Assembly (NCBI GenBank): GCA_001662655.1
Contig: KV460213.1
DNA from: Pseudogymnoascus verrucosus
Taxonomy: Eukaryota
Strand: one strand, 5' to 3'
Length of the DNA stretch: 64,000 bases
Both the position numbers and the translations under genes were made by a program. The number at the start of each line of letters is the position of its first letter. Within the stretch, counting starts at the first letter, position 1. Below, in pieces: positions 1-17,619 of the stretch. The notes under the pieces were generated by a model. That model saw only the letters and a list, made by a program, of their open reading frames with translations, was not told where the DNA came from and made no database searches.

Positions 1-852
1 TGCAGCTTGCTGCTCAATCCCCCCCATTGTGGCTAAAGGTTATCAACCACACGGCAAATATGAGACTATTGGCGGGCTAAAGACCTGTAAACTTAAGCCC
101 TTATAAGCACCCGGAAGACTGATGATTGACTCATTAATAGATGTCACTGGTTCGGAAACCGCTACAACTGGTATTCTCCTGATTTACGATATCTTTGGCT
201 TCGCCAGCCAAACTCTCCAGGGTGCCGACATTCTTGCCACTTCAGACAAACACCACGAATACAAGGTGTTTATACCTGACTTCTTACTCGGTGAGTACGC
301 GCAAAAAGAATGGTTTGCAGACGACGAAGGCAAGAAAGTGCACCTTCCAAACTGGCTTAAGTCCCATGGTCCTCCAACGGCGATCAAGCAGATGCCTGAC
401 ACCCTAAACTCTCTCAATAAATCATACAATAAGATTGATAAATGGGGATGTATCGGCGTAAGTCTCATTCGGCGTTCTTAATCCCACCTCGCGGTGTCAC
501 ATATGTTTCTAACGATTTCACGTAGTTTTGCTGGGGTGGCAAGGTCGCAACCCTGACGTCCAAAGAGGGCACGACTTGGAAGGCCGCCGCACAAGCTCAC
601 CCGGCGATGTTGAATCCCGACGACGCAACGAGCGTCGTAGTCCCTTTCCTGTCTATCGCATCTAAAGATGAGTCGGCTGAAGATCACGCGAAATTCGCAG
701 AAAATCTAAAAGTCGAGAAGCGTGTCGAGACCTTTGACGACCAGATACATGGTTTTATGACAGCTCGTGCGGATCTCGAGGCGGAGCGCAGCCGGGAGGA
801 GTACGAAAGGGGCTACAAAATGTTGCTTGAATTCTTCGCAGCATATTTGTGA
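1..852 (+). CDS. Dienelactone hydrolase family protein (5' end lies before the window); introns ~87-140 and 458-525
   Basis: The spliced product reads ACCSIPP...YETIGGLKTY-VTG...LIYDIFG...PDF...G-FCWGGK (nucleophile elbow formed across the intron)...AHPAM...QIHGFMTAR. Introns have canonical GT..AG ends. Confidence 0.9.
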
Positions 853-1478
853 GACTTCGATTGCGGGCATCTAGAAGTGCTTGGAAAAGCTGAAGCTTTA
901 AACCCTACGAAAATAATAGCTTCATATAAAATACTATTCAAACTGTCGAGCAATAATCCCCGTAGTCTACTGATCTTATGATCAATACCATGGAATCTGA
1001 ACTAAAACTGTTCAACGTGATATCATTAGAAAACCTTAAAAGAGAGAAGGCAAACTATGCAATGACTTACCAGCGCAGATGACTTCTATTATCTGGTCAC
1101 TACATGAAAATATATTGAGGAAGTATGGTTTTGGTATAGCATTTCGCCCTCGTCACTCCCAATAAGTCCTGACGCGATCACACGTCTAGCTAGTAGGGTC
1201 GTTACTGTACACTCGGATTTTAGCCTCTTTTAGATGCAATAGCCAAATAAGTGTGAACCACAAAGCGTCCACTTGTATTATGTCACCATTATCTCGTATT
1301 AGGAGGTGGTCTACACTCTGTGTAATCAGCAGAGGCAGTCTTTACCGTGACAGGTGAGTCGCAGGGTTTATCAGAATGCAAAGCTCAGTCAAAATGTCCT
1401 TCACAGACCGTATATTACATTTATAGCCCGTCTTTATTGTACTAAGTACCTAATACTGATGAGGATCATATAAGATGC

Positions 1479-2477
1479 TCAGACGTGTCGAAGTTCCGCA
1501 ATCGCTTCCGTGGTAGCTGGTTTAGCACGCTTAACGATGTCACCCTTGGCTTCGGCTTCATTGAACGTGAGAACTGTAATATGGGTGCTATTGTCTGTGA
1601 CATGGTCTGTGAAGGCAACTCCGTTTGGAATGCTGATGAAATCTCCTGGCTCAAGAGTGATAATTCCCCGCTGTGTGATCACAGTGCGCGTACCGGAAAT
1701 CTGGCATTGGATCTCTTCGGCTCGACGATGGCGTCGATACTTTGGAGTACCAGTTGATTTCGATAATTCTGTATGCCCGATCCAGACATGCTTTGACTTA
1801 TACTTCCATTCGATGTCCCCCTTCGATGCCTCCGTTGGTCGTAGGATAGATATGAGCTTGTCCTCAGGAAGACCCTTTGCATGATTTAGGAGTAGCGTCT
1901 CATCAACCTGGAAGGAAGCAATGTCACATTCTGGTCCGCCCAAACATTCCGTCATGACCTCAGCGACCACTTTGCTCTCCCATCCCTCAAATGGGGGAAT
2001 GGTATGGCTTGCCTTCTTCGCAAATGGTCCACACTCTGTCACAGAGGCAGGGATATAAAAGAGCAGATGAATTTCATTTCTTCCATAGTTATCATGTCCA
2101 ACACCAACTGGGATCCGTGAATAGTCTCCCGGTCTTATCTCGACGGTGCCATGTTCGGTCATAAGTGTGCGATCTCCAAAGATCTGGTAGGACACCTCGT
2201 CGACATCGGCATTACGGTGATAGAAGGGCTGTCGGAAGTTGCCCATCTGCTGCCATTCTAGTCGGATATGGTCACACTCATAGATGCCTCGCGGAGGTGA
2301 AAATCTGGCAGGGACGAATTCCACAGGGAAGTGGACGGCGCCGAGTAACTCGTGCTGTAAAAGTCGGATTGGACCAACTTGAGCTTTTCCAAAGAGCAAC
2401 TCCTCATCACGTTGGAGCTCGATCGGAGCTTCGTCCGCGATGGGATATGCGTCTAGATACTCGGTAACCACGCCCAT
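1479..2477 (-). CDS. Intronless bicupin, homogentisate 1,2-dioxygenase (HmgA)-like putative ring-cleavage dioxygenase
   Basis: 332 aa with two internally similar cupin repeats (FYHRNADVDE...TEHGTVEIRPGDYSRIPVGVGH and YRRHRRAEE...TQRGIITLEPGDFISIPNG). Candidate His/Glu/His metal ligands are in repeat 1. Confidence 0.7.
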   Translation of the reverse strand: MGVVTEYLDAYPIADEAPIELQRDEELLFGKAQVGPIRLLQHELLGAVHFPVEFVPARFSPPRGIYECDHIRLEWQQMGNFRQPFYHRNADVDEVSYQIFGDRTLMTEHGTVEIRPGDYSRIPVGVGHDNYGRNEIHLLFYIPASVTECGPFAKKASHTIPPFEGWESKVVAEVMTECLGGPECDIASFQVDETLLLNHAKGLPEDKLISILRPTEASKGDIEWKYKSKHVWIGHTELSKSTGTPKYRRHRRAEEIQCQISGTRTVITQRGIITLEPGDFISIPNGVAFTDHVTDNSTHITVLTFNEAEAKGDIVKRAKPATTEAIAELRHV

Positions 2478-2649
2478 GTTGATTTGATAATGGATGGCGA
2501 AACTGGGGCCCGCGTTTCAAGGGTGGCGGTTCGGAAGGTAGGGCTATAGAGATAGTGGGGCTCTTGCAATCAATTGTGCTTGATTACAGTCGGAGATAAG
2601 TTTGGTTTGGTTTGAGCCACATTTATTGTATTTGTAGGTGGACTTACTG

Positions 2650-2703
2650 ATTCGGCCTTCGGGGCTTCGGGAAGTGTTGACCGTTGACCCCGAAAGGCCG
2701 AAT
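2650..2703. promoter_or_regulatory. Near-perfect inverted repeat with CGG triplets in the divergent cupin/TAXI promoter (putative Zn2Cys6 site)
   Basis: ATTCGGCCTTCGGGG (2650-2664) pairs with CCCCGAAAGGCCGAAT (2688-2703), with a single 1-nt bulge. Confidence 0.5.
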
Positions 2704-2972
2704 TAACAAGTCGACCTCGCTGAACCCGCGCTTTTGCGGGCCGGGGATATAGCGGACGAGGGGTCCCACGATACTACTGGCATAGCTGCAAGGGCTTGTA
2801 TATTTAGCTATAGTCTAGCAGTTGATACCTTTTACCGTACGTCTTGTACATAACCATAACCAAACTGACTTGTTACATCAGCTCTCGGCTCTCATATTCG
2901 TCAAGGAACGATAGAAGGGATCCGATTAAGTCCCAAAACAAATGCAAAGGGGTGTCTTCAACTGGATTACTA

Positions 2973-3995
2973 ATGCCTTCCTCGCCAATCGTTGTGCCAG
3001 AGGTTGTTAGCAGCTCACAAAAGAATTCAGAACCCTCAATCGAACGCTCTATCACGTTACACTTCGTCGGAGACTGGGGGCAAGCCAATTTTCACCGTAT
3101 CTGCTCCTGGCTCACACAGGCATTCTGTGACCGGGCCGGTCCACGCAGTCGAGTAGGCATCTGGAGTATTCGCTCTGGAGGAATTGAGGCATTGTATCAA
3201 CTCCATGATGGCGAGGTTGATTTGTGCATTGCGACTCCAGCGGGGCTGATGGCAACCGCCAGGACTGGGACAGGTATTTTCGCCGCACATGGCCCAATGC
3301 CAGGTCTTAGGGCTTTAGCGGTGTTACCGCAACGGGATCGACTGATGCTAGCTGTGCATCCTAAATTCGGTGTCAAGACATGGGAAGATATACGTCGTGT
3401 GAAACCACCTCTCCGCCTAGCAACATCGATTGATGACGGGACGAATTTCATTGGTTATGTAGCCATGCGATTACTGAAAGCGCATGGGATCGACGAGGAG
3501 ACTTTGAAATCATGGGGTGGTTCTTTGGTCTTGAACCATAGACCAGAACATGCACTATTTTCCTTAAAAGCTGGTGAATCTGACGCAGTCTTACAAGAAG
3601 CTATCATGACCCCATGGTGGAGAGAAGCTATGGAAAAGCAGAAAATGGTCCCAATCCAAGCCGAGATGGAGGCTTTGAAGACGCTATCGGGTCAGCCTGG
3701 GTTTGAACCTGCTTCGATTCGAGGAGGCTTCTGGGATGGGGTCAATGAAGAAACTCTAGCAGTTGAATTTTCGGATTTCGTCGTCTTTGTACGCGACGAT
3801 ATGCCGGATGACGTTGCACATCTGCTCACCTGGTGCTTGGTCGAGACTAGAGCCGACATCGAGCGGCAGTACGCTCACATACCATCTGAGCGAAGCCCTC
3901 TGAGTTACCCTCTTATTCCTTCTAATATGGCTAAAACACCTGTTCCACTTCATCCTGGAGCAGAACGGTATTATGAGGAAGCAGGATATTTATAG
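2973..3995 (+). CDS. Intronless TAXI-family (TRAP-associated) solute-binding-protein homolog, no signal peptide
   Basis: First ATG is at 2973 (the track's 2844 start is TTG). PBP2-type features include GEVDLCIA, LRALAVL, GVKTWEDI and VFVRDDMPDDVAH, plus the TAXI C-terminal signature TPVPLHPGAERYYEEAG. Confidence 0.75.
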   Translation: MPSSPIVVPEVVSSSQKNSEPSIERSITLHFVGDWGQANFHRICSWLTQAFCDRAGPRSRVGIWSIRSGGIEALYQLHDGEVDLCIATPAGLMATARTGTGIFAAHGPMPGLRALAVLPQRDRLMLAVHPKFGVKTWEDIRRVKPPLRLATSIDDGTNFIGYVAMRLLKAHGIDEETLKSWGGSLVLNHRPEHALFSLKAGESDAVLQEAIMTPWWREAMEKQKMVPIQAEMEALKTLSGQPGFEPASIRGGFWDGVNEETLAVEFSDFVVFVRDDMPDDVAHLLTWCLVETRADIERQYAHIPSERSPLSYPLIPSNMAKTPVPLHPGAERYYEEAGYL

Positions 3996-4477
3996 TAGCG
4001 TTATCTGAATAACATGCCATATATCATCAAAATATGAAACATACTTGTAGAGACTCCTTGTGCACAGAACCTCTTCCTTTCCAGCTTGCTGAAAACTTGA
4101 CATTCTCCTAGATCAAGCTTGTAGATCTAATGCAAGTATTGCACCCATTCCGATTCATAAGCTTCAATGCCAAACTTTCTTCCAAGCAGCAAGTGCTATA
4201 TTTCTTTTCTCGGCCGATGCCATCCAAGCGAGCCCGTTGAAGAGATGTCTCTACTGCAGGTGACGAATTATCTTCTCATGGGTCAAGTTAAAGCCGATGC
4301 TTCCCCGATAACTTTAAGATCCCCACCTAATTAGTGCAATAAGCTCCATGCCGGTTGTCTCCCTTCCGACACACTTATTACAGTAGGTAACTTATCATGT
4401 ATGAATAGGTAAAAATTGAAAAGGGTACGAATGTCGTTTCCAATTCGCACTCAGTTAGTATCATATCAAAACCAACA

Positions 4478-5446
4478 ATGGCTGAGGTTTCTTTGTCCTT
4501 CGCATGCGGCCTTTACGACCGCGTTAACGCGCTCTATACGGGAGAAATAAAAGCAGCGGGAATCGACTTGGACTTCGTCGTAGTGAATCATCCACGGGTT
4601 CTCTTCGATAATCAGTCTAAATCTGGAGGGCCAGCATATGATTCCTCGGAGCTGTCTGCTTCGGAATATATAACGAGATATGCGGCTGGTGACCGGACAT
4701 GGGTCGCGATCCCGGTGTTCCCGTCGCGACTCTTCAGACACGGATTCATTGTGGTCAACACGAACAAGATCAAAACCCCACGTGATCTGAATGGAGCAAA
4801 GTTTGGCGTCCAGCTCTACACGATGACTGCTGCTGTTTGGATACGAGGTCTTTTGGAAGAAGAGTTGGGTGTCGACACTAATAGTATCGAGTGGATTGAG
4901 GGGTCACTCTCTTCAGCCACGTCTTATGGAAAGGCATCTGTGCTTCCAGGGGTTTCGATCGTCACAAACACTAGTGGCAAATCTCTGGATGAGCTGCTAG
5001 TAGAAGGATCCATCGATGCTGTGATTGGGGCCGAGACTCCTCCGAGTCTTGGAAAGGTGGCACATATCCAGCGCTTGTTTCCTGATGTAAAGAAGGAAGA
5101 GAAGCAATACTACTTAAAGCATGGTATATTTCCCATCATGCATCTAGTAGTCATCCAAAGAGACATCTGGGAGAAGAATAAGCATGTCGCCAAGAATCTG
5201 TTCGACGCTTTGAACGAGTCGAAAAACATCGCTCTGGACCGGATGCGCTTCTTGAGCGCGTTGCGGTATATGTTACCATGGCTCCCAACAGAGCTGGAGG
5301 AGATTAAGGAGGTCTTTGGTGATGATCCTTGGCCATATGGCCTAGAGGAAAACCGGAAAACTCTTGAGACACTAGTGAGGTATTTATTCAACCAGGGCTT
5401 GATTAAACAAAAGCCTTCATTAACAGAACTTTTTGTCCCTGTATAA
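4478..5446 (+). CDS. Intronless 4,5-dihydroxyphthalate decarboxylase-like protein (Pht5/OphC family)
   Basis: Family-typical motifs: LSFACGLYDR..AL..G, SELS.SEY, AIPVFPSRLFRH, YTMTAAVWIRGLL, GIFPIMHLVVI, DPWPYGLEENRKTLE, QGLI. Confidence 0.85.
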   Translation: MAEVSLSFACGLYDRVNALYTGEIKAAGIDLDFVVVNHPRVLFDNQSKSGGPAYDSSELSASEYITRYAAGDRTWVAIPVFPSRLFRHGFIVVNTNKIKTPRDLNGAKFGVQLYTMTAAVWIRGLLEEELGVDTNSIEWIEGSLSSATSYGKASVLPGVSIVTNTSGKSLDELLVEGSIDAVIGAETPPSLGKVAHIQRLFPDVKKEEKQYYLKHGIFPIMHLVVIQRDIWEKNKHVAKNLFDALNESKNIALDRMRFLSALRYMLPWLPTELEEIKEVFGDDPWPYGLEENRKTLETLVRYLFNQGLIKQKPSLTELFVPV

Positions 5447-6301
5447 TTATTCATATCGAGTGTAACCTATACATTATTAGTCCCAAAATAAACTCGTAAT
5501 CAACTGGAAGTGAAACATTGTGGTATTTCTTTAGTATACATTAACTAGTTACCTCATGAAGACCAAATATCAAAAGTAATATCAATGCTGAGGTAAAAAT
5601 CATATTCAACGTACTAGTACATTTTAGAGAAAGAGATTAAGAAGTTTTCGCAGCCATTAGCATCTATGTTTTGTTCCAATATATATATTGGTAAATCTAG
5701 CCCCTAAGTATACACCTTGAGGCAGAGAAGTAGCTTCTAGAGCTCGTAGAAAGAAAAGATGGTCTTCTTTATGTCTAACTGACTGAGGTGTATTCCAAAA
5801 ACAGAGAATATCACCCATCCAAGATCCATGACAATGATGAGAGCGGGAGGATCCCGAAAACAGCAGCAATACCGTTCATGTGGATCCACGGGACAATACC
5901 AAAGCTACTTTAAATACGATTAAATTCTTACCGCCGTGGAACATCTGCGGAACTAATTAGCTTTCGCCTAAAAAGAGAGGAGGGCACTTGTTGACTTACT
6001 CCCGTAATGCCCAACTTGTCGGTCCATGCTAGACCAAAGAGAGCAAAATCATTGTGACTTCAGCGACGTTGAGAGTCGCATGAAGTCACATGAGGAAAGG
6101 GGAATCTTAAAGGACTCGATACGACAGCTCTTAGCAAGCAATGGTTGCTTAGAGTCTAGGGTCAAGGCGACATGGAGCACTATAAAGGGGTTGTCTGGTA
6201 TTTGCGATATACATCCGATAGGTCACTAGGGAGTTGAATCCAAATATAAAAGCTCAAAAACATGACTTTATACATAGATATTTCAAAAATATCTAGCTAA
6301 T

Positions 6302-7423
6302 TCATGGATGAACCACACCCATCCACATAGGCGGAGACCGGTGCGTCACCGACAACACCACCTGCTTTAAATCACTCAGCGCAAATCGGTGACTAACCAA
6401 TTCATCCACGTTTAAGGTTCCGTCCGACAATTTATCTAGAACAAACTTTGTGTCACTCCTTGTATTTCCTCTTGTACCAACAATCTTCCAGCAGTGGACC
6501 ATTAAGGCCACCACAGGCAGCGGCAGCGAGGTGCCGTTTCCTCCCATGTGTACGAGATATCCGCCATAGCCCAATCCCCCCATGACTTGCCAGATATCGG
6601 TGCCAATGGAGGTGGGCATGTAGTCGATGATAGCGTCAGCTCCGGCAGGGGCGATTTCTCTTAGTCTGCGCACTAGGCTGTTTGTTATGGGCCAGTCGCC
6701 AAGTTCATCGAGCGCAATAACTTCTGTCGGGACCTTAGACAGCCTCTGAACGTCTTTGAGACGTTCAGCGGACCGGGCCACGAGGATGAGACGATCTATA
6801 GGGAAGAACTCGGCAAGCTTAAGAGTAGCCACCCCCATGGATCCTGTCGCTGCCGTAACAATGACGGTCGACCTGGGTTGGAGATCTGCACACTTGAGTG
6901 CTCGTACTGCGCATGCAAGGTCCTGCACCTTTGCAGCAACGTCGAAGCTCACATTTTCCGGAATGGTGTCAATCAGCCAGTATGGTGCTTTAACGTATTC
7001 TGCTAGCCCGCCGTTGTGGTACTTCTCAAACAGAGGCTGTTTCCCCTTTCCAAATCCGAGGAAGCCCATCATGGCCGCGTCGGGACACATCTGTTCCCGA
7101 TCGCTGACACAGAACTTGCACTGTCGGCAAGAGAGGTTGGGATGTAGTCGCACCCGGTCCCCCAGGCTAGCAGAGGAGACATCTTCACCTATGGCGACAA
7201 TAGTGCCTGCAACCTCGTGTCCAAGAACAGTGGGGGTGTGCTTATACCGTTGGGTTTCCACATTAGCAAATATCCCCAAGTTCAAACCAGCCGCAGCAAC
7301 TTTGATGAGAACATCCACAGGGCCAATTTCGGGAACGGGGATTGTATCTAGATGGACTTCCGTGGAGCCCTCATGCGCACGCGCGGCCAACATTGCCTTC
7401 GGAAGCTCTGTCGTGCTGAGCAT
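6302..7423 (-). CDS. Intronless medium-chain (zinc-type) dehydrogenase/reductase
   Basis: Has the GHEVAG motif, structural Zn site CRQCKFC..REQMC, GGLAEY and Rossmann AATGSMG. The usual catalytic Cys position reads GLNLG. Confidence 0.9.
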   Translation of the reverse strand: MLSTTELPKAMLAARAHEGSTEVHLDTIPVPEIGPVDVLIKVAAAGLNLGIFANVETQRYKHTPTVLGHEVAGTIVAIGEDVSSASLGDRVRLHPNLSCRQCKFCVSDREQMCPDAAMMGFLGFGKGKQPLFEKYHNGGLAEYVKAPYWLIDTIPENVSFDVAAKVQDLACAVRALKCADLQPRSTVIVTAATGSMGVATLKLAEFFPIDRLILVARSAERLKDVQRLSKVPTEVIALDELGDWPITNSLVRRLREIAPAGADAIIDYMPTSIGTDIWQVMGGLGYGGYLVHMGGNGTSLPLPVVALMVHCWKIVGTRGNTRSDTKFVLDKLSDGTLNVDELVSHRFALSDLKQVVLSVTHRSPPMWMGVVHP

Positions 7424-8089
7424 ATCAAAGTAATTTGTGTGTATTGTCGTTAGCTGTTTAGTGTTGGGCGAAGAAGAGATGAAAGAGCTTGGTTAGGCAT
7501 TAACACTGCCACTAGGCCGCTGAACCATAAGTAACAAAGGGGAGGGGTTAACACGGGGAGAACGGACGAGGTGGTGAGATCTGGATTCTGCGTCTAACAG
7601 TACCTTTCTCCACAATGTCGCTTGCATCCCTTATCGAAGGCATTTTGCACCAATCCCGCGGAAATTATTGAAGACTGAAAGGGCGAAGGTGATGTTGCGG
7701 CACGGTGCCACGGCTTTCCACCCGACCTATCCCCGGATCTTCAGGGGTGTCGACGTGGAGGTTGGATGGGGGATGGAAGCCCAGAGTCCAAACAAGCTTG
7801 GGTGGGGGGGTGGGCCGGAGGTGGAGGCGGAAAGTGGACACCAAGTCCTGTATGTACTGCACCATCTTAGGCTGAAGATCCTTTGTTCGGGCTTCGGATA
7901 ATGTGTCAAACGCGAGTGCAGAAGCATTCGGCACTCGCGTTAGTTGCCGCGTGGTGGATGGTACCGGGGAAATATAGGAGTAGAAAATGAAAAATACAAG
8001 GTTTTTCCAGCACCAAAGTCCTTCTGTCTCCGAATTACATATGTGTTCCGATCCCGCCGCCAAACAGAAGCACAAAGTGTTGATTGATC

Positions 8090-9855
8090 ATGCTACTCAA
8101 CAATTTGTTTCTGGCCGTCGACAATGGCAAGGTCGTAGTCTATGTGGCTGTTCTAATCATTACTGTACGTCACCACTGTGTGCCTCCTCAGCCACTTGTG
8201 GCTGATCAACTCTTCACCCCCAAGGTTGATTTAACTATATCTGTACTCATACACCAGCTAGATCATCCTTTACACTGTTTTCAGTAATCCCTTAGCTCGG
8301 CTACCGGGTCCTTGGTATACGAAATGGACGTCCATTGTCCTCAAGTATAATATTATTAAAGGAAATAGAGCCTTGTATGTCCACGACCTCCACAACAAAT
8401 ACGGTAAGCCCTCACGCAAACAATCAAACCACGTTAAATTATCCGTTTACGTTGCTAATCGATGAAGGTACGCTTGTTAGAGTCAGTCCGACGGAAGTCC
8501 ATGTTTCCGACGTCGCTGCAACAAAACAGATTCACAATGTCAAAAGTTCATTCAAAAAATCGTCTTGGTATAAGTCGTTCACGCCTCCGACGGTCCTGAA
8601 TGTGTTCAATACCAGCGACATTGAGCTTCACCGAAATCTTCGACGGCTGCTTTCATCGCCCATGTCAGAGTCGTCGCTGAAGCTTGTCGAAGTGTACATT
8701 CGCCGGAACATAGACCTAGCCGTCAAAGGAATTTCCGAGGAGATATCAGAACGAGGTGCTGCGGACGTTTTCAAGTGGTGGATGTTCATGGCGACAGATG
8801 TGATTGGGGAACTCAGTTTTGGTGAATCCTTCAAGATGCTGGAGTCTGGCAAGGTAAGTGCTAGTCCTTCCTATGAGGTTATGTAAAACCGTCGATCTAG
8901 CAGAACTTGTGTTAAAATAAATGTCCCAGAAAAACCAATACATTATTGATATCGAAACAAACGGGCTTGCCGGGGGTATTCGTGGCACCTTCCCATTTAT
9001 GGTAAAAGTGTCAAAAGTGATCCCAATCCCTATTTTCAAGGCGGCAGTTGAATCTGCGAAGCGCCTACGGCACTACGCGGAACAGTCAATTGAGCGATCG
9101 AAACGAGTGGCTGCGGAGGACGAGTCTTATCCCATGCTTCTTAAGAAACTGTTTCGCGCCGATGACAACGGACTGTCCGATAGGGACATTGTAAACAACG
9201 CAATGGCGTTCATCATCGCCGGAAGCGATACTACGGCTAACACCTTAACATACCTAACGTGGGCTTTGTGTAAACACCCTGAAGTAAGAGATGCCTTGGT
9301 AGAAGAGCTCCGCTCTCTACCAGAAGGGTTCAGCGAGCAAGATCTCCGTAGTCTGCCAAGGCTGAACAACGTTGTCAAAGAAACCTTGCGATTATACTGC
9401 GCTGCACCATCCGCCTTGCCCCGTATAGTGCCGGCAGAGGGCGTTGTGTTCTCTGGTCACAGATTGCCAGGAGGGACGACTGTATCTACGCAGGCCTACA
9501 CCTTACATCGCAATGCAGATATCTTCCCAGATCCAGAAACCTTCGATCCAAGCAGATGGACGGCGCCTACGAAGGACATGAAAGACGCATACATGCCTTT
9601 TGGCGGTGGGTCACGAGGTTGGTCTTCCCTGTTCTTATTGTTTTAGATTGATTCAGCGCGCTAACAGTTACAATTATAGTCTGCTTAGGACAGCACTTGG
9701 CTGAAATAGAGCTCCGCCTTGCCACTGCAGTTTTCTTCCGTGAGTTTCCTAGTGCTAAGGTTTCCACAATTGAGGGTATGAACGATGGGGATATGGATCC
9801 TCAGGTGTTTTTCTTGTTGTCGCCAAAGGGCAAGAGATGCCTAATTAGTGGATAA
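8090..9855 (+). CDS. Cytochrome P450, 5 exons (8090-8164, 8262-8403, 8468-8853, 8930-9617, 9680-9855)
   Basis: N-terminal TM helix, NPLARLPGPW, I-helix AGSDTT, K-helix ETLR, FDPSRW and heme motif FGGGSR-VCLG assembled across the last intron. All introns are GT..AG and keep the frame. Confidence 0.93.
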
Positions 9856-9999
9856 TGAATATTAGAGCGATGTACATAGAAAGAATGGGATGTATGTTAG
9901 AAATCTAAGTTTATAAATCGACTCTAGCGCTATCCTACAATATATCCCATTAATACCAATCAATTCATCCATGTATACCATTACACACACGCAGCCCCT

Positions 10000-10503
10000 T
10001 CACAACCCCTGTCCTAGCGCCGTCCAGGTCGCCGTGACCGCCGCAGAAGTCAACAACACAGACCTCCCTAAGTTCATCATCGCCCACTGATCCACTAGCT
10101 GCTTCACCGACGCCGCCTGCGCCTCCACCTTCTCCTCCTCCTCCTCCGCCTTACCTAACAACACGTTATTCGTGCCCATCATCACAGCCAGCGTATACGG
10201 AACAATTCCCACTGCTAACACCGCGGCAGTCACATATCCGCGCCAGGCGGTTGTGCCAGCGGCGCGGCTGTCGTAGGCGAGGTAGAGGAGCGAGGTGGCG
10301 GCGATGACCGTGCCGGCCGGGAGGGAGTCGTGGCCTGCGGTGTACATGTGCTTGAATTGCTTAAGGAGGAGGGGCGTGGGGGATTCGAGGATACGTGGGA
10401 CGGCGTATAGCGAGAAAGAGGCGGAGGTGCCGGCGAGGAAGGCGGTAGTTGTTAGGCCGATGGTCTGGAGGAGGCGGGCGGAGTTGGGGGTGAGAGCAGC
10501 CAT
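10000..10503 (-). CDS. DUF1772 / anthrone oxygenase family membrane protein
   Basis: ATG at 10503 (MAALTPNS). Four hydrophobic helices, IVPYTLAVMMGTNNVL and LVDQWAMMNLGRSVL are typical of DUF1772. Confidence 0.8.
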   Translation of the reverse strand: MAALTPNSARLLQTIGLTTTAFLAGTSASFSLYAVPRILESPTPLLLKQFKHMYTAGHDSLPAGTVIAATSLLYLAYDSRAAGTTAWRGYVTAAVLAVGIVPYTLAVMMGTNNVLLGKAEEEEEKVEAQAASVKQLVDQWAMMNLGRSVLLTSAAVTATWTALGQGL

Positions 10504-11697: not shown

Positions 11698-13982
11698 TTA
11701 CACCAACTTGATGCCATAGAAAACTCCGTCCTTGGAGAAGTGCTTTTTTATAGCACTTCTTAAATGAATATCCAAGTCTACCGGGCCATACGGTCTGTGA
11801 TAAATTAAATCGGGAGAAAGCGAGATCTGCGCCTCAGCTTTAATATCTCTACAAGATATCACCATATACTCTGTGCCCAGTACGTATTGGAACGAGCACT
11901 CCTCAGCTGGCCAACGCGTGTCAAGTTTCTTTTGGAACGTTTCCAAGCCCTCTGCGTCTTGGATGATCCGCCATCTTCCCCAGAGCTTTGCTATGAGAAC
12001 TTGTATACCCTCTCCTCTTAGCGGCTTGCGCATTTGAATAATTTTGCCACAAGTCGGACCATCTTTGACATCCATCCTAACATTCTGTCCAATAGTGTAC
12101 CCATTCTCAGGGCGAAGCTTCTCGAGGAGATTCCAACGTGGGTGCATACTTTTTAATGATACAATGTTTAGGTATGGGAGCCCCTTGGATTCCGATGGGA
12201 CTTCGTAGGGTGACATCTGCGTATTAGCTTCGAGGTTGTTAGTAGTAGATTAGAACCTAGTAGGATAATTAGTAAGCCCCATCGAAGGATTAAACAAGAC
12301 AAACCTATAGACTCTTGTACTCGTATACGCCTTGAAGGTGAAACTGTAGATATACCTGAATCTAGGTGAGCTGTTGTGGAATACTCATATACACACCAAG
12401 TACGACTTACCCTCGACTGCAACCTGTTTGTGCCGTGATCTTTTTTTAACAACGCCTCATCGTTAATCTTGCGTTTTGTAGGTTAGCTGCATCCGCTACG
12501 TCTTAAAGCCGCACCCCCCTTATCATTATTAGTGGTTGCTAGTTCCGGGGTAGGTCCATTTCAGTTCGGCTTCGCTGTGGTAGCTGCTACAACCGGGGCA
12601 GTTTCACTTCCATTCGATTCAATCGTGGCGGTTACTAAGGCCCGGCTGGTTTTATTTCTGTTCTGTTTTGCAGTGGTGATTGGCGGGGTCTGAGTAATCT
12701 CTTTTTTGGGGGGTTAGCTGTGAGAGCTGCTGGGACCTGGGGAGCATAATTTCTAGTCGATCTCCTCGTAAGGTTGGCTGTAGAGTTGCCGCTAATGTTT
12801 GAATCCGATTCATTCTGTATTTGCACGCCCTCAGTGATCTCCTCGTCCATGGCTAGGGTGATCTCCTCGTCCATGGCTGGAATGATCTCGTCGTCCACGG
12901 CTGGAATGATCTCGTCATCTATTGCTGCAGTGATCCCATCGTCCATGGCTGGAATGATCTCGTCATCTATTGCTGCAGTGATCCCATCGTCCATGGCTGG
13001 AATGATCTCATCGGCCTTTTCGCCAACAGCTAGGCAAGTTGCTTGGGGGCTAGTTTCGGTACTCTGGGCCGTAGAATTGGCGCCGTCATTTGAATCCAAC
13101 TTGTCTGGCGAAACTGGAGGGGTTTCCGTAAGTAATACAACTGCTGGTAGCCACACTTCCCAGCCATCTAATCCCCGCCGGTGCTTGATGCCTAGCATTG
13201 TGGTCGCTAGGATCGACTGTCCTGACTGAGATGAGTCGTCCTTAGTGTGATATTTCTCATTAAACGGGTCACCAATTTCTAGCCTAAAGGTAGCTAACTC
13301 CCCCCTAGAGGCCAAAATCGCTACATGGAGCTTTGTTGCGATATCCATAATCTGCCATTCAAGTTTAAGCTGTTGAGGACATGACCGCCCTTAAATTTTC
13401 TGGTCTAGATTTCATCAAAGCGTTGCGGCGCCTAACGAATATTGGTGGACGTTCTTCCCAAGTTGCAACGTGAACATATCTGATGAACGATTCTGCTAGT
13501 GATAAGTTCAGGTCTTGGCGCTATCATTAATACATACTCCGTGTTTCTTTTTTGTTTTATTTCTATAGATTTATGTTTCGCCAGCAACCTCTTTAGTGCG
13601 GTAGTATCATCGAATAAAACCCCACAATGGACTGCGAATTCATCGAACAAAGTGCAAACTACTGCACGAATCCACTGAACAGGAGTCGAACCTTCACTAT
13701 ACCACACTGGTGATTGAAGCTCCGCTGGGTACACTAAACGTACGGCGAAATGTCTCGAGGAACTGAGCGTGACTTCGCTTCGAATGCGCTGTTCCTTCAT
13801 GTAAGAATGACATCAAGCTGCAAGAAGCCGTCTAGTGTTGTTGGAACATGTTGCACATATTTAGAGACTGCCCACTCGAGACTCTCGAAACATCCAAGGG
13901 CCTCCTCCTTGGGTGTTTGGTTATCGCTATCCTGGTCCGACATATTCGCGGGACGGGTCGTTGTCTCGACTAGACCCTTCAT
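11698..13982 (-). pseudogene. Fragmented orphan gene(s), probably degenerate; the last segment (11698-12216) is weakly BAH-domain-like
   Basis: Co-oriented ORF pieces at 13797-13982, 13432-13800, 12635-13348, 12168-12452 and 11698-12216. The protein-like frame between 12635 and 12452 is interrupted by in-frame TGA (12561-12563) and TAA (12483-12485). Confidence 0.4.
12834..13012 (-). repeat. 24-bp coding minisatellite (~7.5 copies, 8-aa unit DEIIPAMD/DGITAAID) with an exact 48-bp higher-order duplication
   Basis: Units such as gtgatctcctcgtccatggctgga. The 48-mer atgatctcgtcatctattgctgcagtgatcccatcgtccatggctgga occurs twice in tandem. Confidence 0.9.
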
Positions 13983-14622: not shown

Positions 14623-15915
14623 CTAAACCTCCACAACCACCTCTTTCTCCCCCTTCCCCTCCCCCTCCACCCCCCTCCTCTTCTTCAACACATTCTCAAT
14701 AAACGCCTCCCCGGCCTTATAACTACTCCTCACCAGTGGCCCAGCCGCACAATACAAAAACCCCATCTCCAACGCCCTCTTCTTCCACGCGTCAAACACC
14801 TGCGGTGAGATGTACTCCTCAACCTGCATATGTCTCTTCGTGGGCCTCATATACTGTCCAAACGTAACCACATCAACATTCACCTCCCTCAGCCTCCTCA
14901 GGGCGTCCATAAGCTGCGGCTCCGTCTCTCCCAAGCCCAGCATAATACTCGTCTTCGTAATCAAACTCGGCACCGTCTCCTTCGCCCTCCCCAGCACCTT
15001 CAAAGACTGCGCGAACGTCGCGCGCCTATCCCTGACTTGAGGGGTAAGCTCATCCACCGTCTCGACATTATGCGCGTAAACATCCAGTCCCGACAGAGCG
15101 ACTTTATCAACCATCTCCAACTTCCCGCCGAAATCCCCCGTCAGCGCTTCAACCATTATCTCCCTCCCCCCGCCCTCCCGACTCTTCGACTTAATCTTCG
15201 CAATCGTCTCCGCGAAATGCGCTGCCCCGCCATCGAGCAGATCATCGCGGTCAACGCTGGTCAACACCACATACCCCAGTCCCCACCTCCTCAGCGCCTC
15301 AGCCGTGTTCTCAGGCTCATGCGGATCCAACGGGGCCAGATCCCACGCCCCCTTCGCCTTACGTGCCGTCTTCACAGAACAAAACCTACACCCCCTCGTG
15401 CACGTATCCCCCATCAACATAATAGTAGCCGTCGCAGACGCCTTATCCGAGCCTCCCCAACATTCCCCGATATTGGGACACCGCGCCTCTTCACACACTG
15501 TATGCAGCCCCAGTCCGCGGAGATCGGCTTTAATAGCTTTGAAGCCCGCAGAGGTGTTGGGGGAGGGGATGGAGGTCTTGAGCCAGGACGGGAGGCGGGT
15601 GATTTCTTTTTTTCCCACCTTTGCGGTTCGGGGGCGCAGGGCGAGCATTTCGGCGGGGGTGAGGGGTTGGTCGATGTCGAGGTATTCGTGCAGGGTGGGG
15701 ACGGGGGTGTCTTTGAAGTAGGTTGGGCGACCTTTGGTTGGCTTCGCTGCGGAGGCGTCGGCGGTGGTGGTTGTGTCTGAGGGGTTTGCTTCGCCAGCGG
15801 GCGTTGCAAGGCCGCGGACTGAGGAGGAGTTGATATAAACCGCCTTTGCTGCGTTGCGGAGAGGCGGTGCGTTCAGGCATCTGAAACGCGTGCTGGAGGA
15901 CGCCATGGCGTACAT
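14623..15915 (-). CDS. LIP5: Mitochondrial lipoyl synthase
   Basis: Auxiliary cluster motif [17 protein letters not shown], radical-SAM motif [18 protein letters not shown] and an N-terminal presequence. Confidence 0.97.
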
Positions 15916-17619
15916 TGTGAGGTCGGTCGTGCAATTGGATTGTTTGGAGGTCTGGTGGTGATGTGATGATGGTGGTAATGGGCGACAAATTATTTTGTGA
16001 GGCCCCCGGAGATGGGTGAAGCACGCAGGACCAGGCTGAGAAATTCGACGACGGGTACTGGCGGAGGCGGATGTCCGTGCAAGTTTTGTGTTGAGGCACG
16101 TGACTTGGGGGCAGACGACGTCGATGGATGGAGCTGGATGACTGTTCTATGAAGTGGTAAGAATAACTTGTTTTATATGTAGTATTTATCGATGTGGTGT
16201 TTTACACAAGACGCTTTATTTGGTATTCTTGGTCGGAGGTTTCGAGGCAGTTCAAGGAGTAACCAAAATATATTCATTCACACGTACAGATTTATTCCTT
16301 CTAAGAAATATAATATCTATACCTAAACAAAGCTCATTGGCCTATTTCTACTGTATGAAACCCATTACAATATATAATCTATCAAATAAATAAATACACG
16401 CACTTAGAAAACACACACCTACAGTTGCTAATTATAAAAAAGTGAAGTCCTAGAGTAATATTCTGGCATGTAGGTGTAAATACCATTGTAGATCCAGCAT
16501 CCATCCCGGCAACTCGGAAAAATCCAGAATAAACCCGCAGATCCTACTCCAAACGACCAAAGATTTAGAGTTTAAACCGCACCCTCGATCAATTCCCAGA
16601 AAGGTAAAAGGTCACATAACAGCAGATAAACTACAAAACGAAAGAAAAGTAGCGCGCGCTACCAATCTTCATTTACGGCATCGAAGTGTCACAGATCACA
16701 AATCACACAACAGTCAAGCAGCATCACTCAAAGCCACCAAAACATATATCGAACACAAAATGCATTCCCTTTCCACATCCGCTCGCTACATGCCCTCCAC
16801 ATCCCCTACATGAACTCCAACACCCCATCCATCCACCAAGCCACCAAACACCAAGCCATCTGTGTCAAAAATCCACTCCCCACAAGTGGGATCAACGAAG
16901 AAGTAAGATTTCCCAAACATCAGCTCCCACCAGCAAACCTCAAGCGCCATCCCACCAGCCGGCGGAACGAGCGAAGTAACGGAATGCATCGGTGATGGTA
17001 CCCAGACCGTCACGTCCCCTTGCCACATCACCCCAACAACAAACACACTGGATCTCCCCGTCCCCCTTTGCCACAACAATTAGAATAAACCCCCAAACAC
17101 ACCCGAGAGATCCCTTCCCCTGACACACGAACAAAAAAAAAGTAGTAGTTAAAAAGAGGAGTTGATGCAATCGGCTAGACCCCAGGAGGCACAGCCCGCG
17201 GCGCGCACATGAGTGAAAGAAAACCAGGTTTGGTGTCTAGCTCGATTGCAAGAACGACGAAGAGGTACTTCACAAAATAACAAGATTGTAAAGGTGGGTA
17301 TTCGAGAAGCGTAAAATGGGAAGACGAGAGAGAAGAAGGATATGAATTAAAAGGAGTAGTGAGATGATGCAAATGTTTGCCCCAAAACCCCCCCTCCTAA
17401 CTCCATTCCTCCCTCCCCCTCTCCCAAAAGCCATAAGATGACAAAGAAGCCCCAAAGTCGGGGAACAAAAAGTAAGTAACAAGTAATGCATCAGCCTCTT
17501 GGGCGAGGGCAGAGTCGCTTTCAAAGATGTCGGAGGCACATGCAGGGCGTGAATGCGTTGATAACAAGAGTAGATGATCGCATCGAACGATTTCGAATAT
17601 TGCACCGCGCTCGACGCGC

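Follow-up and report, generated by a model that had tools for sequence, protein, structure and literature searches.

A candidate ring-cleavage gene cluster of bacterial type in Pseudogymnoascus verrucosus, with a putative role in aromatic dicarboxylate catabolism

Bacterial-type genes for the catabolism of aromatic compounds have several described counterparts, none of which combines the proteins considered here. The homogentisate and gentisate pathways, in which homogentisate 1,2-dioxygenase (HGD) and comparable enzymes open para-diol rings, have neither an atypical medium-chain dehydrogenase/reductase (MDR) nor a TAXI-fold protein as partner. Pht5/OphC (PDB 9jp7), the 4,5-dihydroxyphthalate decarboxylase of bacterial phthalate catabolism, is an enzyme with a fold like that of periplasmic binding proteins, and TAXI proteins (8s4j, 1us4, 4ddd) are solute-binding proteins (SBPs) of TRAP transporters. 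We have analyzed seven adjacent genes at the start of a 64,000-nucleotide stretch of contig KV460213.1 (assembly GCA_001662655.1) from the fungus Pseudogymnoascus verrucosus, hereafter called the window, in which relatives of all these proteins lie side by side. With a probability of roughly 0.6, in our estimate, this Pseudogymnoascus-like Leotiomycete carries a bacterial-type ring-cleavage trio, formed by a bicupin, a TAXI-like protein and an MDR protein, that entered an ancestor of Pezizomycotina jointly from an alphaproteobacterium-like donor, to which a Pht5-like decarboxylase was added and which acts in a pathway for a dicarboxylate.

The seven genes were all found where the initial annotation had placed them, as verified with the list of open reading frames (ORFs) and a Pfam scan (E <= 0.01):

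Exons <1-86, 141-457 and 526-852, plus strand: dienelactone hydrolase (DLH) family, fungal type, PF01738; 5' end beyond the left edge of the window
1479-2477, minus strand: HGD-like bicupin, 332 aa, single ORF
2973-3995, plus strand: TAXI/NMT1_3-like protein, PF16868, single ORF
4478-5446, plus strand: Pht5-like decarboxylase homologue, 322 aa, single ORF; relative of PDB 9jp7
6302-7423, minus strand: zinc-dependent alcohol dehydrogenase (ZnADH)/MDR oxidoreductase, 373 aa, single ORF; ADH_N
8090-9855, plus strand: cytochrome P450, PF00067; four predicted introns
10000-10500, minus strand: DUF1772/Anthrone_oxy membrane protein, 166 aa; PF08592

Each of the four central genes is a single ORF without interruption, and its product can be aligned over the whole length with bacterial homologues; the hydrolase and P450 genes contain introns, and no housekeeping gene intervenes among the seven. 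The bicupin and TAXI-like genes form a divergently transcribed pair. Pfam and ORF scans agree with the earlier statement that the window holds no backbone synthase, transporter or regulator. Intron absence alone is not diagnostic, because two genes further to the right, for lipoyl synthase (507 aa) and a TP_methylase protein (666 aa), are also long single ORFs. The GC content of the cluster region, 0.41-0.56 in 1-kb bins, is similar to that of the remainder of the window; a compositional anomaly as a sign of recent transfer was looked for and not seen.

Evidence that the central genes constitute a unit comes from bacteria. A scan with the bicupin alignment, using one genome per prokaryote species, retrieved 174 relatives, the best 80 of which gave 78 loci, mostly from Actinomadura, Streptomyces, Nocardia and Amycolatopsis, together with Pigmentiphaga, Hydrogenophaga, Acidocella, Phaeobacter-like and other Proteobacteria; no Pseudomonas is present among these 78 best loci. 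Comparison with the window proteins by tblastn found a ZnADH homologue (42-56% identity) in 73 of the 78 and a TAXI homologue in 56. Under a strict filter, the ZnADH gene lies at most 400 bp downstream of the bicupin gene and on the same strand in 63/78 loci, and a TAXI protein of at least 40% identity is encoded within 10 kb in 49/78. A bacterial-type DLH, resembling classical dienelactone hydrolases (1din, E 8e-18), is found in 42 loci (43 without the length filter), and all four genes occur together in 35/78. In Amycolatopsis, DLH and bicupin are even fused (P0197 of 571 aa, and a 590-aa ORF at L004:9206-10978), a Rosetta-stone link between the two predicted activities. No description of this module turned up in our searches of open-access papers and preprints. 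Of note, many Actinomadura loci (among them L021, L023, L042 and L051) carry the module twice, at a distance of 4-6 kb: one version has a distant TAXI paralogue (~30% identity) directly upstream of bicupin-ZnADH, and the other consists of a TAXI (~43% identity)-DLH-ZnADH set.

The neighbourhoods of the bacterial bicupins show, as far as predicted families can tell, an aromatic-catabolic setting. Across the 78 loci we counted FAD monooxygenases in 49, FAA-family hydrolases in 45, IclR regulators in 45, class II aldolases in 44 and glyoxalase-type dioxygenases in 29, whilst Pfam analysis of 94 ORFs from nine loci recovered FAD_binding_3 monooxygenases of 530-570 aa, FAA-family hydrolases, glyoxalase-type dioxygenases and class II aldolase-like proteins along with IclR, LysR, GntR or TetR regulators and MFS or TctC transport proteins. 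Para-diol cleavage of the homogentisate or gentisate type is recognised by an HGD-like dioxygenase that has FAD monooxygenases and FAA-family hydrolases for neighbours; the difference from those pathways is that the bicupin is always paired with the MDR protein and usually with the TAXI-fold protein. In locus L010 the operon order is TAXI, class II aldolase, bicupin and ZnADH. The best PDB match of the bacterial class II aldolase is 2z7b (Mlr6791, E 2.8e-22), which we take to be the 3-hydroxy-2-methylpyridine-4,5-dicarboxylate decarboxylase that acts in the breakdown of vitamin B6, and the NovR decarboxylase also matches. Known members of both families, Pht5 and class II aldolase, take one carboxyl group off a hydroxylated aromatic o-dicarboxylate; in our reading, the fungal and the bacterial enzyme are two solutions to one decarboxylation. 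The initial annotation had proposed a route of decarboxylation, ring cleavage and hydrolysis, which remains plausible, and its phthalate-like option gains some support from this aldolase. A similar gene mix is known from 7-hydroxycoumarin catabolism in Pseudomonas mandelii 7HK4, where genes for an FAD hydroxylase, an extradiol dioxygenase and a hydrolase are reported to have those of the MDR/ADH-type HcdE and the cupin HcdF as neighbours (PMC7913881); the likeness to the bacterial bicupin neighbourhoods is one of description and serves as an analogy only.

We then considered how far the unit is conserved in fungi. The homologue lists comprise 266 proteins for the bicupin and 976 for the TAXI-like protein, and the fungi in both presumably belong to Leotiomycetes, Eurotiomycetes, Dothideomycetes and Sordariomycetes; many fungal bicupin/TAXI-like pairs lie on contigs of identical size. 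Neophaeococcomyces mojaviensis has consecutive accessions for bicupin (KAJ9654510) and TAXI (KAJ9654511), which we read as gene adjacency from the numbering of whole-genome shotgun records. By the same reading, Halenospora varia probably keeps a Pht5-like gene (KAH6667421) beside its TAXI (KAH6667423) and bicupin (KAH6667424) genes. Two metagenome loci that are fungal-like by their GC content (0.48-0.49) and by split transketolase and NB-ARC genes nearby, L082 and L083, retain the divergent bicupin/TAXI pair of the window, and in L082 a TRI12-like MFS gene and a ZnADH homologue follow 1-4 kb downstream.

Phylogenetic trees of the four central proteins were constructed by quick search in IQ-TREE, with SH-aLRT support and midpoint roots, from named proteins and locus translations, unnamed metagenome proteins being included only in the Pht5-like tree. 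In the bicupin tree (43 rows), the 19 fungal rows fall into two clades, one of 11 including the window protein (support 98, starred) and one of 8 (99, starred), which together with five alphaproteobacterial rows form a clade (100, starred) among actinobacterial rows; this topology is compatible with a single fungal origin of the bicupin. All 28 fungal rows of the TAXI-like tree (49 rows) cluster with Phaeobacter and OCS116 in a clade (95, starred) inside a proteobacterial group (99, starred), with Actinomycetota outside. In the ZnADH tree, built with 51 of the 91 collected rows, the window protein joins, with support 90, a clade (98, starred) of Alphaproteobacteria and the fungal L082 protein. 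The Pht5-like tree (61 rows) groups 13 named fungal and 12 unnamed rows (support 83) as sister to a group (95, starred) with a Xanthobacteraceae protein, within alphaproteobacterial rows.

The nesting of fungal clades in bacteria, the absence of introns and the bacterial operon context together point to an old bacteria-to-fungus transfer, the direction of which depends on the root. The topologies would be explained most simply if the bicupin-TAXI-MDR trio had been transferred as one piece and the Pht5-like gene separately. The claim of a horizontally acquired core is retained for its bacterial type and its conservation as a unit, with the qualification that the acquisition is old and not recent, each gene being part of a broad fungal clade of several classes; nesting of the central genes in broad, vertically inherited fungal clades had been named in advance as a refutation and, taken literally, is what the trees show, but the broad clades are themselves nested in bacterial diversity. 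Transfer of several linked genes from bacteria to a fungus with the linkage kept has, to our knowledge, rarely been documented. The enterobactin operon of Wickerhamiella/Starmerella yeasts offers a likeness, in that neighbouring bacterial genes were transferred together and stayed linked; the present case differs in that the recipients are filamentous Ascomycota, gene order and orientation are rearranged into divergent pairs and the presumed function is catabolic.

The bicupin deserves the label of HmgA-like with which it had been introduced, at the level of fold. Its AlphaFold (AF2) model (pLDDT 90.7) is closest to homogentisate 1,2-dioxygenase 4aq2 (Z 20.6, root-mean-square deviation 3.8, 268 residues aligned with VIA-align), the next fold family following at Z 17.3 and quercetinases at ~16.5; it took re-alignment with VIA to tell HGD apart from the remaining bicupins, Foldseek by itself having failed to do so. 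The nearest Atlas clusters carry the automatic name homogentisate 1,2-dioxygenase, which we treat as a lead only. Residues H87, E94 and H128 of the N-terminal cupin are invariant in 13/13 aligned sequences and form a candidate metal site, with a His-x6-Glu...His pattern that we take to resemble the iron site of HGD. The protein differs from HGD in being ~100 residues shorter, in its identity of 8-11% and in having the candidate metal site in the N-terminal cupin. We regard it as a putative Fe(II) ring-cleaving dioxygenase.

The TAXI-like protein belongs to PF16868 (NMT1_3; E 7.5e-17, 62.3 bits against a cut-off of 27), and its model (pLDDT 87.7) is matched by TAXI binding proteins of TRAP transporters at TMq 0.66-0.76, with 8s4j (Foldseek E 9e-20) and 4ddd at 0.72-0.76, so that family and fold both bear out its identification as a TAXI homologue. 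Unlike transporter SBPs, it occurs in a eukaryote; no leader peptide is present in the 19 aligned members, fungal and bacterial; the score with TIGR02122 (54.3 bits) lies under the curated cut-off of 84.35; and no TRAP membrane component was found among the 94 + 76 ORFs scanned with Pfam in 19 bacterial loci, nor in the window. Because of these properties, and because many of the ~70 invariant positions of the family alignment are polar, we infer that the protein is cytosolic and serves as an enzyme or a ligand-binding partner rather than in transport. TAXI-type binding proteins have been reported to serve the uptake of o-phthalate in denitrifying bacteria (PMC13040137), and such recognition would fit a dicarboxylate ligand for the cytosolic protein.

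A metagenome scan anchored on the TAXI-like protein gave 80 loci, of which 14 contain the bicupin and 12 the ZnADH. Other associations were also observed in them. On four fungal-like contigs (L079:5115-12071, L080:6145-10954, L085:9896-14560 and L109:6856-10939), a TAXI paralogue stands beside a Questin_oxidase-like gene (PF14027) and adjoins an NAD_binding_10/NmrA-like reductase, and L079 additionally carries Anthrone_oxy, class II aldolase and carboxylesterase genes; these loci give the impression of another kind of cluster, centred on the same TAXI-fold protein and equipped with a different oxygenase for ring cleavage. On bacterial contigs without bicupin, a cupin of ~190 aa with a C-terminal zinc-ribbon-like motif and weak matches to 3-HAO (3-hydroxyanthranilate dioxygenase) and Cupin_2 precedes the TAXI-like gene (L105:9416-9985, L138:9317-9895, L092:9381-9950, L139:9423-9986 and L143:9180-9875; also L129, L140 and L152). 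These contigs further encode DLH and MarR proteins, a flavodoxin and a flavoprotein of the ferredoxin-reductase type, and a P450 or a VanA-like Rieske oxygenase is present in some; they may represent a multi-component oxygenase system. Across contexts the TAXI-like protein is accompanied by some oxygenase, a reductase and a DLH, which lends weight to the idea that what it handles is a feature shared by aromatic substrates.

The MDR protein carries ADH_N (E 1.2e-20, 74.1 bits), and its GHE motif (H69/E70) and the four cysteines of the structural zinc (C99/C102/C105/C113) are invariant in 9/9 aligned sequences. Its best PDB relatives, a ketose reductase and polyol dehydrogenases, reach only E 1e-22. 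Judged from its residues, the protein is an atypical oxidoreductase of the ZnADH family, as the loss of a catalytic residue discussed below also indicates.

The Pht5-like protein matches 9jp7 over its full length (E 1.6e-56, residues 3-321 against 23-341), as its earlier naming implied, and has no Pfam match. It is 94% identical to V502_01947 of Pseudogymnoascus sp. VKM F-4520, and an Aspergillus niger gene has been annotated as 4,5-dihydroxyphthalate decarboxylase (PMC2375020). Full-length homology and an enzyme fold of the periplasmic-binding-protein kind are what it shares with Pht5/OphC; no description of catalytic residues of Pht5 was found in the open-access literature, and the fungal copy differs in belonging to a broad fungal clade and in having no phthalate dioxygenase or dihydrodiol dehydrogenase gene as partner in the window. 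The family is very large, with 5910 matches at E <= 0.001 among 8000 scored. Bacterial relatives with 56-59% identity exist; the best among 401 genomes of one class reached only 46%, with uninformative neighbourhoods. In five bacterial genomes that bear the module, Pht5-like matches (35-41%) were found elsewhere in three and none in two.

On these grounds the most likely role of the genes is to break down a hydroxylated aromatic dicarboxylate or lactone, through decarboxylation and a hydroquinone-type cleavage of the ring. After joint entry of the trio into the Pezizomycotina ancestor from its alphaproteobacterium-like donor, the Pht5-type decarboxylase, bacterial-derived and separately acquired, would have been inserted into the cluster in this fungal lineage, with fungal-type DLH, P450 and DUF1772 genes flanking it. 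The substrate would be a hydroxylated aromatic o-dicarboxylate, which the DLH may release from a fused lactone and the MDR protein may oxidise. One carboxyl group would first be removed by the Pht5-like enzyme, a step for which bacteria would use the class II aldolase-type decarboxylase; the ring would then be brought to the para-diol state by the P450 here and by the FAD monooxygenase in bacteria, and be opened by the HGD-like dioxygenase, the product being processed by hydrolases, the DLH in this fungus and an FAA-family member in bacteria. Having parted from its transporter, the TAXI-fold protein would bind the dicarboxylate in the cytosol or catalyse one of the steps. DLH and MDR protein could act upstream, where a fused lactone would be opened and the hydroxymethyl group so released would be oxidised, in parallel to the pyridoxolactone-to-dicarboxylate route of vitamin B6 catabolism. 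Alternatively, both could act downstream, on an enol-lactone or unsaturated ring-cleavage product, in the manner of the MDR-type HcdE, which is reported to reduce the C=C bond of a lactone ring (PMC7913881).

Several observations weigh against this reconstruction. The pathway steps are inferred and the substrate is a guess. Around residues 40-46 of the MDR protein the cysteine of the catalytic zinc is replaced by Ala/Ser-Ala-Gly in 9/9 aligned members (a column placed by alignment with 1e3j and by what we take to be the ADH motifs), and this absence makes ordinary alcohol oxidation doubtful. The bicupin departs from HGD also in matching neither HgmA_N nor HgmA_C in the Pfam scan; its Cupin_2 score of 25.7 bits is under the cut-off of 27.2, and AraC_binding is its only other match. 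Sixty-six of the 80 TAXI-anchored loci lack the bicupin, though many of these contigs are short. The trees are quick and midpoint-rooted, the fungal ZnADH rows have long branches and the support of 90 for the window ZnADH is unstarred. No Pht5-like gene occurs in the 78 bacterial bicupin loci or in the 80 TAXI-anchored loci, and what ties it to the trio is this lineage, the accession order in Halenospora and one 38-kb ENA contig with bicupin and Pht5-like matches. The window DLH is not orthologous to the DLH of the bacterial module, the best blastp match being E 0.001 over 41 residues, and it has no tblastn match in the 78 bacterial or the 80 metagenome loci, fungal-like ones included. Finally, the RNA nature of the contigs described next is a tool's guess.

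These contigs derive from run X1, of a relative that is 90-95% alike, and cover the coding parts of six of the seven genes, namely bicupin, TAXI-like, Pht5-like, MDR, P450 and DUF1772; none lies on the DLH gene or on intergenic bins, an absence that does not indicate silence. One of them skips the 62-nt P450 intron at 9616-9677, which has GT..AG ends. They agree with transcription of six of the seven in a single sample, and contigs can neither rank expression nor prove co-regulation.

How many of the seven genes belong together is the question on which the foremost alternative turns. The initial annotation had treated all seven as one set; the real unit is, in our reading, the trio, with the Pht5-like gene in Leotiomycetes, and the membership of DLH, P450 and DUF1772 is unproven and must be considered uncertain. 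The window DLH has PF01738 in its last exon (E 3.6e-9, 36.9 bits against a cut-off of 21) and two introns read from the sequence (87-140 and 458-525, GT..AG ends); once spliced, it contains ...GCIG|FCWGG... and ...IHGF..., the Cys and His of which we take to be residues of the DLH triad. By the comparisons given above it is a fungal-type family member distinct from the module's DLH. The P450 (PF00067, E 9.7e-47; predicted exons 8090-8164, 8262-8403, 8468-8853, 8930-9615 and 9678-9855) shows the heme-binding FxxGxRxCxG motif as FGGGSR|VCLG once intron 9616-9677 is removed, and the DUF1772/Anthrone_oxy protein matches PF08592 (E 7.4e-26, 90.9 bits against 27.3). Away from this locus, no link between the P450 and the core was seen.

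The functional unit could therefore be confined to the bicupin, the TAXI-like protein and the MDR protein, perhaps with the Pht5-like protein, the other three being unrelated neighbours, an alternative that we take seriously while thinking it somewhat improbable. Besides the lack of any DLH match, it is favoured by the single weak P450 match and the single DUF1772 match (a 34%-identical homologue 2 kb from the TAXI paralogue of L079, the only such recurrence) found by tblastn across the 78 + 80 loci, by the MFS transporter and transketolase genes that flank the trio instead in L082, and by the DLH gene having no X1 contig. It has to contend, however, with the bacterial DLH present in 42-43 of the 78 loci and even fused to the bicupin, which makes non-orthologous replacement plausible, with the P450 genes ~1 kb from TAXI-like genes in bacterial metagenome loci L092 and L143, and with the coverage of P450 and DUF1772 in the same X1 run as the core.

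It is unlikely that the genes encode tailoring enzymes of a secondary-metabolite cluster of the polyketide or anthraquinone type, with its synthase left of the window. DUF1772/Anthrone_oxy is indeed present with a P450 and a DLH, TAXI paralogues occur beside Questin_oxidase-like, NAD_binding_10 reductase and Anthrone_oxy genes (L079, L080 and L085), and the cluster is cut by the left end of the window, beyond which a contig of run X2 reaches ~12 kb further. Yet the window, with housekeeping genes on its right flank, contains none of the synthase, transporter or regulator genes looked for, and the bacterial homologues accompanied by IclR/MarR, MFS, FAA hydrolases and ring-hydroxylating monooxygenases form a catabolic pattern. 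The suggested anthrone/anthraquinone route, which draws on a Pfam name and on an indirect analogy to questin-oxidase loci only, is not upheld.

A remnant of an o-phthalate pathway, in which the Pht5-like protein would convert 4,5-dihydroxyphthalate to protocatechuate, appears more improbable still. The full-length homology to a solved 4,5-dihydroxyphthalate decarboxylase and the reported part of TAXI-type proteins in o-phthalate uptake (PMC13040137) speak for it; against it stand the missing phthalate dioxygenase and dihydrodiol dehydrogenase genes in the window, the sheer size of the Pht5 family, and the absence of a member beside the trio in the 78 bacterial loci. Moreover, protocatechuate is generally known to be cleaved by intradiol or LigB-type enzymes and not by HGD-like bicupins. 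Enzyme-rich regions do arise by chance in fungal genomes, and adjacency by chance can be dismissed here as very improbable, being contradicted for the core by the bicupin-ZnADH-TAXI linkage, which recurs in different bacterial phyla and in three or more further fungal records.

Returning to the trio acquired from bacteria and extended by a Pht5-like gene, a bolder version of it may be put forward tentatively, at odds clearly short of even: a three-gene operon, which an ancestor of the filamentous Ascomycota would have acquired in one piece from an alphaproteobacterium-like donor and which was long kept linked and extended with Pht5 in Leotiomycetes, would encode an undescribed ring-cleavage route of bacteria and fungi in which an SBP has turned into a cytosolic enzyme or substrate-handling subunit. 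If true, the locus would be a further case of linked bacterial gene transfer, now in filamentous fungi; its substrate, once worked out, would add a ring-cleavage route to aromatic catabolism and supply the leaderless TAXI-fold orphans with their first known function. The reach of such a finding would be broad, because the module is widespread in soil Actinomycetota and Proteobacteria and the same core is present in many Pezizomycotina, black yeasts and relatives of Aspergillus/Penicillium among them.

As to the borders of the cluster, the left one may lie beyond the window, the start of which cuts the DLH gene. The X2 contig covers window positions 1-5662, extends ~12 kb to the left and then matches 7526-7668 again, so that a short element of the ZnADH-P450 intergenic region is repeated left of the window in the X2 strain. 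The right border is near 10.7 kb, because housekeeping genes begin after two ORFs without family match; the nearest of them is that for lipoyl synthase (14626-16146), followed by the TP_methylase protein, Spc19, NIPSNAP, RRP40, an Hsp70-like protein and others. One of the two family-less ORFs lies at 11698-12249, and the other, of 251 aa on the minus strand at 12635-13390, just right of the cluster, contains tandem acidic repeats (DDEIIPAMDDGITAAI-like).

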